A stretch of DNA of 64,000 bases from Enterobacteria phage vB_EcoM_IME341. Under the pieces are notes generated by a model. It did not search any database and was not told where the DNA came from. It worked only from the letters and a program-made list of their open reading frames with translations. How positions within the stretch are numbered: position 1 is the first letter of the stretch; each line of letters opens with the position of its first letter. The translations under genes and the position numbers were made by a program. Location: sequence record MH051917, one strand, 5' to 3'. Shown here one piece after another: positions 7,841 to 10,991 of the stretch.

Positions 7841-8026
7841 ATGAAACGTTGTGAATTAATTAGAAATGTTACTGCACTGGCAGCCGTTACTGCTTTTGGC
7901 TTTAGTATGTTTGCAGGATTCATGCTCGATATGCTTTCAACTTCCGAGAATATAATCTCTTTAGTAGTGGCATTTTTAATTGGTTCAATCTCTTTCGTAA
8001 TGGATAAAATCTCTAAAGGTGAATAA
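7841..8026 (+). CDS. small membrane protein
   Basis: 61 aa from ATG after SD GGAG in the cassette 3' end; hydrophobic; ORF-track start 7829 is a TTG inside the shared leader. Confidence 0.55.
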   Translation: MKRCELIRNVTALAAVTAFGFSMFAGFMLDMLSTSENIISLVVAFLIGSISFVMDKISKGE

Positions 8027-8427
8027 TGAACGTTGAATATTATGTATATGCGGATTATGAAAATAACCCGTCTAAAGATGAAGATAACCGTTTAGGTGTT
8101 GATGCTTTTGACTCTCCTGCTGCAGCTTGGCAATGGGTTGAAAGTACTGATATCCCTTATCGTTATATTGAAGTGGTAGACCATGCAGGAAACAAGTATC
8201 CTAAGGAAGCATATATTCCTTCTGGAAAGGTAAATTTCCTTTTGTTCGCCGGTGACAACTATTATCCACGTGGTGGATACACTGACTTAATCGCAAAAGC
8301 TGCTACTGAAGATGAACTACGTAATATCATTAAAGATAACGAGAATAAGCCTTGTTACGGTTCTAATCGTTTTGACTGGTGGCAGATTGTTAATGCCAAT
8401 ACCCACACAATTGTAGACGAGGGTTAA
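8026..8427 (+). CDS. hypothetical protein
   Basis: 133 aa ORF, ATGA overlap with upstream gene. Confidence 0.5.
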   Translation: MNVEYYVYADYENNPSKDEDNRLGVDAFDSPAAAWQWVESTDIPYRYIEVVDHAGNKYPKEAYIPSGKVNFLLFAGDNYYPRGGYTDLIAKAATEDELRNIIKDNENKPCYGSNRFDWWQIVNANTHTIVDEG

Positions 8428-8712
8428 ATGCTATACGTTAAGGTTACTAATCCAGAGAATGGCTATAAATCCGATCAGGTTGCAGCTGAGTTGTTGATTC
8501 GCAATTATGGCAAAGATGCTGTTCTTGATGTTCAACAGGTTAATATAGGACGTAGTTCAAGCGATGTTAAGCTCAAAGTTAACAGCCATCGTTATAATTC
8601 TGTTAACTTTACTTTTTATACCGCAACTGAAAATGGATTGGTCGAATACGACATCTTTAAAAATCCTTTGAAGATTGCTTCTATTAAACTTGATTACATT
8701 AATATGCTTTAA
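8428..8712 (+). CDS. hypothetical protein
   Basis: 94 aa ORF directly abutting previous stop. Confidence 0.5.
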   Translation: MLYVKVTNPENGYKSDQVAAELLIRNYGKDAVLDVQQVNIGRSSSDVKLKVNSHRYNSVNFTFYTATENGLVEYDIFKNPLKIASIKLDYINML

Positions 8713-8815
8713 GAATTATGTGATATTATTACTCTATCATTAATACCCTCTATTACCAAAGGTTCTTCCCTCAAAGAATCTTTCATAATAGAATTAATCA
8801 ACTAATGAGGAAAAT

Positions 8816-9235
8816 ATGATTACTCCAATTCTTATCGATTTTAACAGCGAAACCTGGGAAAATCCAGAAATCGCTACAGAAGTATTTTATAACTGCCAAC
8901 CATCTGAAATTAACTATAATTGTTTTGACGGGAATTTAATCCGTATTTGGTTAAAATCTAAAGAACACTCGGCCCATATTGTGGCTACAGTCTGTGATGA
9001 CGAGTTATATGAAATGTGTTCCGGCGTAACAGAATTTGATGCCGATTTAATTGCTGGATGGTTATTCACTGTTTTATTTGAAGATGTTTGGTCACCAGGC
9101 GGTGAACAATTCTGTTTCAGCGAGTTTGGTAAAAAGTTAGGTGTTTTTTCTTCGGATGACACCAATTTTAATATTTCGCCTGATATTTGTGTACACTATG
9201 ATGGCCCTTCCGAAGGTTGGAATTGGTCTAGTTAA
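8816..9235 (+). CDS. hypothetical protein
   Basis: 139 aa ORF with SD GAGGAA upstream. Confidence 0.5.
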   Translation: MITPILIDFNSETWENPEIATEVFYNCQPSEINYNCFDGNLIRIWLKSKEHSAHIVATVCDDELYEMCSGVTEFDADLIAGWLFTVLFEDVWSPGGEQFCFSEFGKKLGVFSSDDTNFNISPDICVHYDGPSEGWNWSS

Positions 9236-9242
9236 GAATTAA

Positions 9243-9319
9243 GGCCCTGTAGCTCAATGGTTAGCAGCAGTCCCCTCATAAGGGAAAGGTTACCAGTTCA
9301 AATCTGGTCTGGGTCACCA
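9243..9319 (+). tRNA. tRNA with CAU anticodon (Met, or Ile2 lysidine-type)
   Basis: GGCCCTG acceptor, D-arm GCTCAATGGTTAGC, anticodon loop CTCATAA, T-arm ACCAG-TTCAAAT-CTGGT, 3' CCA; one acceptor mismatch. Confidence 0.7.
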
Positions 9320-9387
9320 ACTTTGATTAGGTAGAGCAGTCAACTTCTCCATGAATAAATATCTATATAAAATTCATGGAGAAAATT

Positions 9388-10047
9388 ATGCTTTGCCAAT
9401 ATTGTTCTAAAGAATGTAAAAACTTAAATTCACTAAAGCAACATGAAAAACGGTGCAAATCTAACCCAAATGGATTAGATATGAGCGGCCCTAATAACCC
9501 TCGTTTCGGTCTTAAAGGTGTCAATCAATTTACAAAAGCCAAAGAACTAGGTAAAGAAATAAAGGTTTCTGATAAAACCAGAGAAAAACTTAGAAAAGCC
9601 AATACAGGATATGTATGGTCTAATGAACGCAAAGAAGCACATTCTAAAAGAATGCGGCAAGCTGTTCTTGATAATCCTGATTCATATTCTGCTTCTAATG
9701 TTTCTGGTCGAGTAAAAACATATGAGTTTGACGGATTTAAATTTAAAGGGACTTGGGAATTAAAAGTTGCTAAGTTTTTAAAAGAACACAATATCAAATA
9801 TACTAATGAAATAAAGCCAATTCCTTACGAATGGGAAGGTTCAGAACATCTCTATTTTCCTGATTTTTATTTACCCACTTATGATTTTTATATAGAAGTC
9901 AAAGGATATAAAAGAGATAGAGACCTTTGTAAATGGAAAGCTTTAGAAAATTTGATAGTTTTAGAAAAAGATGAGATTTCCGATTTGTCTTGTCTTTTAA
10001 ATAAATTACGTCCCGCTGGTGTAATGGATAGCATACGATCCTTCTAA
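9388..10047 (+). CDS. putative freestanding homing-endonuclease-like protein
   Basis: N-terminal Cys cluster CQYCSKEC...HEKRC, NUMOD-like basic repeats, C-terminal PD-(D/E)xK-like FPDF...YIEVKG; inserted between tRNAs like seg genes in T4; ORF-track start 9376 lies inside a hairpin. Confidence 0.5.
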   Translation: MLCQYCSKECKNLNSLKQHEKRCKSNPNGLDMSGPNNPRFGLKGVNQFTKAKELGKEIKVSDKTREKLRKANTGYVWSNERKEAHSKRMRQAVLDNPDSYSASNVSGRVKTYEFDGFKFKGTWELKVAKFLKEHNIKYTNEIKPIPYEWEGSEHLYFPDFYLPTYDFYIEVKGYKRDRDLCKWKALENLIVLEKDEISDLSCLLNKLRPAGVMDSIRSF

Positions 10048-10084
10048 GTTTGCGGTCCTGGTTCGATCCCAGGGCGGGATACCA
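10010..10084 (+). tRNA. tRNA-Arg (anticodon UCU)
   Basis: Acceptor GTCCCGC/GCGGGAT, T-arm CCTGG-TTCGATC-CCAGG, anticodon loop with TCT, 3' CCA; first ~38 nt overlap the endonuclease ORF 3' end. Confidence 0.75.
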
Positions 10085-10342
10085 AATGAAGACTATTATA
10101 TAGTCAAGCCGTCGTATGAAGACTGATTGCCAGCATTCACCGGCGCAACAAACAAGAAACCGGGTCGCTACCGGTAAGTCGTCGGACTGAAGTTCTCTGG
10201 AGTATAGTTCCTCCCACAGTTGTACTGTGTTCTGGTTCTTTACTATCACAGCTGAAACGGCGCACCGAACACTTGCCTAGCAGGTGGAACCCCGACAAGG
10301 TTGCCGCAAGGCATAGCCCCTTCCGAAAGGTTGGGGCTTTTT
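10085..10342 (+). ncRNA. candidate structured small RNA(s) downstream of tRNAs
   Basis: About 260 nt without ORF, GC-richer than surroundings, ends in strong terminator; T4 encodes stable RNAs C/D of unknown function in its tRNA cluster. Confidence 0.3.
10315..10342 (+). terminator. intrinsic terminator
   Basis: agcccc-ttccgaaaggtt-ggggct followed by TTTTT. Confidence 0.65.
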
Positions 10343-10383
10343 GGCATAATAAATAGATAAGTTAATTAACTTAGGAAATAATA

Positions 10384-10848
10384 ATGAAAACTTACAATGA
10401 ATTTTTGACTGAACAATCTAGTTCAGATGTAAAAGCCGCTGCGATTGCAGCAATTCAAGCAGGTAAATATTCTTACAAAGACGCCTCTGATGAAGAACGT
10501 TTCCGTTTTATTAAAGATTTTAAAGCCGAAGGTTTTACTAATGCTAATACTGTTAGCCGAGTTTTTAAAAGCCTAGCTGCATCAGGTGAATTGTTCCAGA
10601 AAGCTACAGGTAAAGCACCTGCGCCAAAAGCGGACCCTAAAGCCGCTCAAGAAAAAAATATCGCCAAAGGAATTATTTCTAAGTATGAAGCAATTCTTAA
10701 AGAGCTTTTAGTAATCAAAACAGAAGGCCAGAAACTGGCACGGGCACATAGCTTCAAAGATAATCCGCATGCTCACGACTTAGAGTATGTTGAAGATATT
10801 CAGAAAATCATCAAAGACCGTATCTGGTCTGCTAAACAAATCAAATAA
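10384..10848 (+). CDS. internal-protein-like protein with capsid-targeting sequence
   Basis: N-terminus [11 protein letters not shown]; 154 aa; flanked by two near-identical terminators. Confidence 0.65.
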   Translation: MKTYNEFLTEQSSSDVKAAAIAAIQAGKYSYKDASDEERFRFIKDFKAEGFTNANTVSRVFKSLAASGELFQKATGKAPAPKADPKAAQEKNIAKGIISKYEAILKELLVIKTEGQKLARAHSFKDNPHAHDLEYVEDIQKIIKDRIWSAKQIK

Positions 10849-10962: not shown

Positions 10963-10991
10963 AGGCCCTTCCGAAAGGTTGGGCCTTTTTT
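10963..10991 (+). terminator. intrinsic terminator (duplicate of the 10315 module)
   Basis: aggccc-ttccgaaaggtt-gggcct + TTTTTT; loop identical to 10315 terminator. Confidence 0.65.

Follow-up and report, generated by a model that had tools for sequence, protein, structure and literature searches.

An rnaD orthologue and a small rnaD-like unit at the 3' end of the tRNA operon of Enterobacteria phage vB_EcoM_IME341

What does a T4-like phage carry directly behind its transfer RNA (tRNA) genes, where no plausible protein-coding gene can be found? This question was raised by positions 10085-10342 on the + strand of a 64,000-nucleotide stretch of DNA (the window) from Enterobacteria phage vB_EcoM_IME341 (sequence record MH051917). 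An earlier note on this DNA had proposed a stable small RNA at this place, akin to RNAs C and D of phage T4. These two RNAs have been known since the 1970s and are to date without an assigned function (PMC3014915, PMC9697503). RNAC and RNAD were detected in T4 infection (PMC9697503), and T4 RNAD accumulates during infection as a discrete stable RNA of about 120 nucleotides (nt) (PMC9697503, PMC3014915). Our analysis supported the proposal with three refinements: only RNA D has a counterpart here, an extra unit of 66 nt is present, and the last 75 nt are a trailer and a terminator. As judged from sequence comparison and folding, the stretch is composed of three parts, namely a 66-nt mini unit resembling rnaD, an orthologue of rnaD (the gene of T4 species 2 RNA), and a conserved trailer with a terminator. 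It very probably forms the 3' end of the phage tRNA operon, in which two processed, structured small RNAs would be followed by the trailer and terminator. As its main element belongs to the rnaD family, the stretch is largely of a known kind, old and ordinary in T4-like phages. What is new is modest: the unannotated mini unit, the arrangement of D without C, the documentation of one arm of rnaD as an exchangeable cassette, and a wider distribution of the family.

The stretch behind tRNA-Arg and its rnaD orthologue

The stretch started one base after the 3' end of tRNA-Arg(TCT) as located by ARAGORN and Rfam; the earlier note had placed it after the tRNAs, and the limits given there were exact to the base. 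The last base of tRNA-Arg is 10084. The order on the + strand was tRNA(CAU) (9243-9319), an endonuclease-like open reading frame (ORF), tRNA-Arg (10010-10084), the mini unit, rnaD, the trailer and the terminator. The absence of a plausible ORF from 10085-10342 was confirmed: the + strand contained only ORFs of 24 amino acids (aa) at 10116-10190 and 27 aa at 10273-10356, the latter with a TTG start, and the minus-strand ORFs ran antisense through tRNA-Arg, including a 116-aa GTG ORF at 9899-10249. The region was also GC-richer than its surroundings, as had been noticed, with GC contents of 0.485-0.515 in 200-nt windows covering 10000-10299 and 0.285-0.415 in the 2 kb on each side. The RNA of the + strand of 10085-10342 folded at -87.5 kcal/mol, compared with -75.0 ± 5.1 kcal/mol for dinucleotide shuffles, one of the 200 folding equally well (z -2.45), and the fold of the - strand was weaker (z -1.94).

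When 10000-10360 was compared by BLAST with 50,697 phage records, matches were found in 753 T4-like phages, and rnaC, rnaD and tRNA-Arg were annotated under the match in several of these records (T4, RB3, Aplg8 and RB68). The annotated order in T4 and RB3 is tRNA-Arg, rnaD (species II RNA, 121 nt in RB3), rnaC (species I RNA, 139-140 nt) and the terminator. In blastn alignments, the window was 94% identical to T4 rnaD over 50 nt at the 5' end and 92.6% identical over 27 nt at the 3' end, and it was 95.7% identical to T2 rnaD over 116 nt, which is the whole gene. A covariance model built from 34 distinct rnaD sequences found a single match in the 64 kb, at 10151-10268, with a score of 116 bits and an E-value of 5.7e-26; this match was full length and covered model positions 1-123. 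The gene itself was placed at 10152-10267 on the + strand, with ends transferred by homology from the annotations of RB3 and T4. It lies on the tRNA strand between tRNA-Arg(UCU) and the operon terminator, with the 66-nt unit intervening.

T4 rnaD lies directly 3' of tRNA-Arg(UCU), and the window gene shares with it the strand, the 5' hairpin, the closing stem, helices 3 and 4 and an ACC-type tail. The two differ in that the arm of the window gene is of T2 type and not of T4 type, its tail is ACCG and not ACCA, the 66-nt unit separates it from tRNA-Arg, and it is directly followed by the trailer instead of rnaC. With blastn, the covariance model, RNAalifold and pair counts in agreement, 10152-10267 carries all the testable defining features of the rnaD family and is assigned to it; it is neither a tRNA nor rnaC. 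No Rfam family reached its gathering score in the window except for the two tRNAs, and nothing relevant was found in 9900-10500 at E ≤10 with permissive filters. T4 rnaD and rnaC themselves had no matching Rfam family either, and genome annotation often misses these genes or labels them as 'hypothetical protein'. With regard to host origin or mimicry, no match was found in 5,426 complete E. coli genomes, and the only two matches obtained when 185,579 species genomes were scanned with a pattern were not supported by the rnaD model.

The rnaD sequences were gathered from T4, RB3, T2, T6, JS98, VR25, Mosigvirus, Providencia phage PSTCR6, vequintavirus W70, IMG/VR and metagenome contigs. The pattern used to scan IMG/VR and the metagenomes required exact conserved ends, which is why few new arm types came from these scans; 44 of the 84 pattern matches were chance matches in GC-rich contigs. 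RNAalifold, applied to a plain MAFFT alignment of the 34 distinct sequences, gave four helices with 22 pairs, of which 7 showed compensatory changes. According to RNAalifold and the pair counts, the helices in the window (+ strand) are the 5' hairpin H1 (10159-10163/10171-10175), the closing stem H2 (10180-10184/10258-10262, with 10178-10179 pairing with 10264-10265), the 4-bp helix H3 (10191-10194/10250-10253), and H4 at the base of the variable arm (10198-10199/10247-10248 and 10201-10204/10241-10244). Over the alignment, 98.0% of the cells were paired compared with 91.9% in shuffles, none of 500 shuffles being as high, and shifting the 3' partners by 1-3 columns left 28-50% of the cells paired.

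Covarying pairs were AU/GC/GU at the base of the 5' hairpin, UA (21), AU (9) and UU (4) in helix 3, and GC/AU, UA/GC and AU/UA in helix 4. After the addition of two Karamvirus-type relatives, KaAlpha and Ursula (n = 36), 9 of the 22 pairs showed double changes, in an alignment that was fitted to the model and is hence biased towards structure, unlike the plain MAFFT alignment of 34 sequences. In these relatives, helix 3 changed from UGUU/AGCA to UAAU/AUUA, and over the enlarged alignment it showed the pairs UA/AU, GC/AU and UG/AU/CG. The five inner pairs of the closing stem, CGUCG/CGGCG, including a U-G pair, were invariant in the 36 sequences, which gives no information on pairing but marks a strongly constrained sequence. 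The window rnaD formed all 22 consensus pairs in the model alignment. A conserved four-helix rnaD core is backed by covariation, and the covariation analysis across T4-like phages, which the earlier note had named as a check, was therefore positive for rnaD.

Two other structural readings were rejected. The lower-stem register of the minimum free energy (MFE) fold of the single sequence (CUG/CAG, UGU/ACA) was replaced by the RNAalifold register UGUU/AGCA, because the latter alone stays paired when the U/A and A/U exchanges, the U-to-C change and the AU changes of Karamvirus are taken into account. The otherwise invariant internal loop GGACUGA/GAAA, which separates helices 2 and 3, was also considered as a K-turn or a tandem G-A motif, and this was dropped, as the loop differs in the Karamvirus-type members. 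The short, single-stranded 3' tail of rnaD, which in most members consists of ACC and one further nucleotide, is CACCG in the window and CACCA in T4, and the missing A could be added post-transcriptionally.

The central 45-60 nt of rnaD, between the conserved CCCUG and (U/C)CACAGC, formed a variable arm. Described from alignments, the arm has at least four unrelated forms: that of T4 and RB3, a long AU-rich hairpin with compensatory changes of its own; that of T2, which is also that of the window; that of JS98 and VR25; and the short form of W70 and Karamvirus. In the window it occupies 10200-10246 on the + strand, as delimited by comparison with IME540, EcWhh-1 and QL01 and by the MFE substructure, and it is an irregular hairpin with CACAG-UUGUA-CUGUG at 10215-10229. 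The closest relatives of this phage made the contrast sharp. The arm was 96% identical to that of IME540. It was 27-29% identical to those of EcWhh-1 and QL01, which is the random level, whereas the mini unit and both halves of the rnaD core were 95-100% identical to those of the same two phages. The rnaD arm is a cassette exchanged between otherwise near-identical phages. For the sharp borders of the exchange, our analysis yielded no explanation.

The 66-nt unit, the missing rnaC and the terminator

The mini unit at 10085-10150 (+ strand), recognised from a four-way alignment, BLAST and folding, was previously unannotated. It begins with the leader AAUGAAGA, where T4 rnaD has AAUGAGAA, followed by a 6-bp 5' hairpin (10091-10096/10100-10105), by AAGC-CGUCG, where rnaD has AAGU-CGUCG, and by GACUGAU. 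In its closing stem, CGUCG (10110-10114) pairs with CGGCG (10141-10145); the inner hairpin consists of UGAA/UUCA and CUG/CAG, and the 3' tail is CAACA. The 3' end of the unit, CGGCGCAACAAACA, and that of rnaD, CGGCGCACCGAACA, form a direct repeat with CGGCGCA(A/C)CAAAC in common. Local alignment of the unit with rnaD, allowing a cheap long internal gap, gave z values of 3.8-4.4, which were reached by 3-8 of 2000 shuffles, and the unit was the second-best match of the rnaD model in 9900-10500, but no better than a chance match. It is probably a truncated paralogue of rnaD that keeps only the core.

The four-way alignment showed that the unit is missing from T4 and RB3. Among the 50,697 phage records it was present in only 25, all of them Dhakavirus-like and all with copies at least 97% identical. 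It occurs together with rnaC in QL01 and without rnaC in the window, IME540 and EcWhh-1, so that its gain was independent of the loss of rnaC.

The chances that the unit is released as an RNA of its own, rather than being a scar of recombination, appear evenly balanced to us. It could be such a scar, and in the most explicit form of this explanation the unit is not a gene: it would have arisen by recombination or gene conversion, as a partial duplication of the rnaD ends, through the insertion of a T4-type tRNA-Arg cassette, driven by a homing endonuclease, beside a JS98-type rnaD. We regard this as a plausible account that we nevertheless do not favour. In agreement with it, the unit starts with the T4-type leader AAUGA and ends with the JS98/RB3-type junction C(A/C)CAAACAAGAAACC, contains a 9-nt direct repeat, ATGAAGACT, at 10086 and 10116, and is confined to phages with a T4-type tRNA-Arg adjoining an endonuclease ORF. 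The rnaD model also scored the unit at chance level; the match ran end to end but reached 6.0 bits (E 0.12), compared with 5.5 bits for a chance match at 10427. As the copies are all at least 97% identical, they allow no covariation test. Against a scar, the unit retains all elements of the core in order: the hairpin, a closing stem that has the U-G pair of rnaD, and the tail. The unit also folded better than its shuffles (-16.4 kcal/mol, z -2.47), its few variable sites fell in a loop (10126) and the tail (10148) and none in stems, and phages with any of three rnaD arms retained it, whether rnaC was present or not.

T4 rnaC, the partner gene of rnaD at the same locus, gave no blastn match in the 64-kb window (word size 7, E 1e-3), and it matched 12 other loci at 97-99%; where present, rnaC is thus highly conserved, unlike the mosaic arm of rnaD. 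The parallel with T4 RNAs C and D drawn in the earlier note, and the alignment with T4 rnaC and rnaD suggested there, therefore held for D, which was found at 10152-10267 in the same position and orientation, and failed for C. In the alignment, rnaC was cleanly deleted between rnaD and the trailer, and the trailer and terminator, which stand behind rnaC in T4, are retained in the window. A CAAA repeat stands on both sides of rnaC in T4, of which the window keeps a single copy-like GAAC. At this clean junction, rnaC was either lost or never acquired. The slot between rnaD and the trailer contains rnaC, nothing (the window, JS98, CLB_P2 and IME540), or about 500 bp of other DNA. The last case was seen in two Gaprivervirus-like genomes, TH40 (1118-1622 of the extracted locus) and that of extracted locus L004, where this DNA was unrelated.

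The trailer at 10268-10315 (+ strand) was 92.6% identical to that of T4. It forms the hairpins CACUUGC-CUA-GCAGGUG (10270-10286), AACC...GGUU (10288-10302) and GCC-GCAA-GGC (10303-10312). The first 36 nt, which contain two of the hairpins, were invariant in sequence in 16 distinct trailers, and the third hairpin was swapped for ACC-CUA-GGU or deleted in other lineages.

The strong terminator that had been noticed at the end of the stretch was also found, at 10316-10342 (+ strand), as the hairpin GCCCCUUCCGAAAGGUUGGGGC with U5 (-15.1 kcal/mol). The hairpin, at 10316-10337, has the form GCCCC UU CC GAAA GG UU GGGGC, and a simple terminator scan missed it because of the UU/UU internal loop. The homologous terminator of the T4 tRNA operon has a perfect stem (-19.4 kcal/mol), and one pair of the terminator was compensatory, being CG in 12 sequences and GC in 4. 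Having a GC-rich hairpin and a U tract on the transcribed strand, 10316-10342 is predicted to be the rho-independent terminator of the tRNA/small-RNA operon. The 18-nt core of the terminator, CCCTTCCGAAAGGTTGGG, occurred at 10318-10335 and again at 10966-10983 (+ strand), 650 bp apart, and none of 100 shuffles gave two matches. This second copy is followed by U6 and folded at -15.6 kcal/mol, and the 16-nt match of the trailer within the window is accounted for by it. A terminator-related sequence, GGCCCTTCCGAAGGTTGG, was located at about 9204-9221, inside the end of the ORF at 8816-9235.

Expression, processing and possible function

The primary transcript of T4 spans the tRNA cluster, ends after the species I RNA, and is the precursor of the tRNAs and of the species I and II RNAs (PMC2330249). 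Given this and the anatomy of the locus, the small RNAs of the window would form part of a single precursor that starts at an upstream promoter and also contains the tRNAs. The T4 late-promoter box, TATAAATA, had no exact match in 8000-10400, and a sigma-70 promoter scan remained at background level. A MotA-box-like sequence, TATGCTTTA, followed 12 nt later by TATTAT, is located at 8703-8733 (+ strand), upstream of the ORF at 8816-9235 and of the tRNA genes; as a pattern match only, it is a candidate middle promoter of the operon.

From such a precursor, host tRNA-maturation enzymes would release the RNAs, with an endonuclease cutting in the A-rich spacers of 1-6 nt after each (A/C)C(A/G) end. 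Trimming by 3' exonucleases would then stop at the closing stem and ACC tail, and the 5' hairpin together with the paired, C-rich 3' end would confer stability. The enzymes taking part in this release are presumably RNase P, RNase E and exonucleases. Nothing on the processing of species 1 and 2 RNA was found in the literature searched. The units resemble tRNA genes in that they stand within a tRNA operon and in that tRNA-Arg, the mini unit and rnaD each end in a GC-rich stem and a short single-stranded tail of (A/C)C(A/G) type, behind which a few nt of A-rich spacer follow; their maturation by the tRNA-processing machinery is presumed from the common precursor (PMC2330249). Once released, the rnaD core might serve as a binding site for a host or phage protein, as a trans-acting, titrating or decoy RNA, with the arm tuning the interaction.

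Several points weigh against this picture. The ends given for rnaD in this phage are predicted from the RB3 and T4 annotations. The tail varies across the family (ACCA, ACCG, ACCU, ACCC, ACAG and AAAG, and CCGA in Karamvirus), so that a tRNA-like CCA end is not a fixed feature, and the 5' hairpin lies upstream of the closing stem, unlike the geometry of a canonical RNase P substrate. T4 mutants in which this region is deleted are viable in laboratory hosts. The longest antisense targets found in the window for the mini unit, rnaD and the trailer were 12-13 nt, which is about the chance level, and the absence of a host homologue from the E. coli and species genomes described above also speaks against a function other than that of a spacer. 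No trans-acting function has ever been shown for RNAD (PMC3014915, PMC9697503).

A role restricted to cis was considered in this light. The stretch would then be a structured 3' spacer with a terminator that aids 3' maturation of tRNA-Arg, shields the transcript from 3' exonucleases and ends transcription, and the stable RNAs would be long-lived by-products without a function. This would agree with the trailer and terminator being the most sequence-invariant parts, with rnaC being dispensed with or replaced by about 500 bp in the phages listed above, and with no function having been found for these RNAs in 50 years (PMC3014915). We nevertheless consider it rather unlikely. The helices of rnaD keep their pairing by compensatory changes, and the sequence of the core is invariant across genera, even in a vequintavirus, neither of which a simple spacer would require. 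In T2-type and Mosigvirus genomes, rnaD follows an ORF and not a tRNA, and is therefore not tied to the 3' maturation of one tRNA. Furthermore, a convergent single-nucleotide polymorphism (SNP) is reported to have arisen in the rnaD of a T4-like phage while it adapted to another host that was new to it (PMC12685909). A function of rnaD beyond spacer duty is favoured because of the covariation, the conservation of the core into vequintavirus, Karamvirus and Jiaodavirus, the placement behind an ORF instead of a tRNA in T2-type and Mosigvirus genomes, and the reported convergent SNP.

A more far-reaching idea, which we offer as a speculation and think improbable, is that rnaD-type RNAs are a modular family with a constant core and an exchangeable arm, spread over tRNA clusters in several groups of phages. 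Selection, either diversifying or dependent on the host, would act on the arm as a specificity module, which might for instance tune a decoy or titration interaction with a host RNA-processing factor or a tRNA-targeting defence factor, and the 66-nt unit would be an expressed, minimised paralogue marking the functional core. Whatever the role of rnaD, the locus gives no answer on the function of RNAs C and D but provides useful natural variants in the form of natural experiments: a phage with D and without C, a minimal D-like unit consisting of the core only, and near-isogenic phages that differ only in the D arm.

That the region consists of one or more degenerate tRNA genes, left over from the larger tRNA clusters of relatives, is disfavoured and highly improbable. 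Relatives carry up to 10 tRNAs at this locus and the window carries 2, and T4 rnaC has a T-arm-like hairpin, GGUUCGAAUCC, with a weak tRNA-Sec-like match (17.5 bits, threshold 47). However, ARAGORN found no tRNA in 10085-10342, and Rfam with permissive filters gave no tRNA-clan match there at E ≤10. The fold supported by covariation is a hairpin with a long branched stem and not a cloverleaf; rnaD has no T-loop and no anticodon arm, and its 5' hairpin precedes the closing stem.

That the segment encodes one or more small proteins is hardly conceivable: automatic annotations set short coding sequences (CDSs) over rnaD and rnaC in T2, G2469, ESh29 and CLB_P2, but the + strand ORFs of the stretch are only 24 and 27 aa long, the rnaD copies of relatives (118-125 nt) differ by lengths that are not multiples of 3 and hence share no conserved reading frame, the arm is replaced by unrelated sequence, the substitutions track base-pairing and not codon structure, and the T4 products are known RNAs (PMC9697503, PMC2330249). 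The 'hypothetical protein' CDSs over rnaD and rnaC were located at 673-944 in L016 (T2), 682-810 in L018, 690-970 in L019 and 660-749 in L020, in positions of the extracted loci. These short CDSs are probably false gene calls.

Related phages and neighbouring genes

Genes resembling rnaD were also found directly after a tRNA in phage PSTCR6, vequintavirus W70, Karamvirus KaAlpha, Citrobacter phage Ursula and Jiaodavirus W14-4. The rnaD model detected the same core in all of them, with scores of 126.5 bits for PSTCR6, 93 bits for W70 and A73, 28.4 bits for KaAlpha, 33.1 bits for Ursula and 16.6 bits for W14-4. Compared with the window gene, the genes of the other groups have a shorter arm (about 104 nt overall), another 5' hairpin sequence and another internal loop between helices 2 and 3, and those of Karamvirus type have the tail CCGA. 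With a core supported by covariation and D-like genes beyond Straboviridae, a curated RNA family could be built.

The gene of Escherichia phage W70 (Vequintavirinae), at 1491-1594 of extracted locus L011, is the 93-bit family member outside Straboviridae, and it is identical in A73. Such an occurrence points to horizontal transfer of the RNA gene across families of phages.

Between the rnaD-like gene and the next tRNA, a further structured RNA of about 140 nt that is not a tRNA was observed in Klebsiella phage KaAlpha (L086, 1576-1716), in Klebsiella phage W14-4 (L088, about 1080-1205) and in the same region of Ursula (L087). Its closing stem of about 19 bp keeps its pairing, with UUUAC/GUAAA in KaAlpha and UUCGC/GCGAA in W14-4, and the folds had z values of -4.3 and -4.0. 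This RNA is unannotated and distinct from rnaC, which sits elsewhere in the same cluster.

The gene for tRNA-Arg(UCU) at 10010-10084 (+ strand; ARAGORN, and 48.8 bits with the Rfam tRNA model) encodes its CCA end and was identical to the T4 tRNA-Arg allele in the alignment. Between it and tRNA(CAU), a 223-aa ORF was located at 9376-10047 (+ strand), in the slot that is occupied by the GIY-YIG homing endonuclease SegB in T4, IME540 and PSTCR6. The protein was unrelated to SegB (BLASTP E 0.58), had a Cys/His-rich N-terminus, and gave a weak Phage_endo_I match of 24.3 bits, below the cut-off of 29.1. It was 99.6% identical to its counterpart in EcWhh-1 and 59% identical to proteins annotated as endodeoxyribonuclease I in Acinetobacter T4-like phages. 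The ORF probably encodes a different free-standing endonuclease that replaced segB. It overlaps tRNA-Arg by 38 nt (10010-10047), with its stop codon at 10045-10047 in the anticodon loop TTCTAAG, whereas the SegB ORF of T4 and IME540 stops just before the tRNA.

The window has two tRNAs in this cluster compared with 8-10 in T4 and RB3. The other one, at 9243-9319 (+ strand), was called Met(CAT) by ARAGORN. In the alignment its body was as in the T4 gene annotated as tRNA-Ile and unlike the tRNA-Met of JS98 and VR25, and it is probably a CAU-anticodon isoleucine tRNA.

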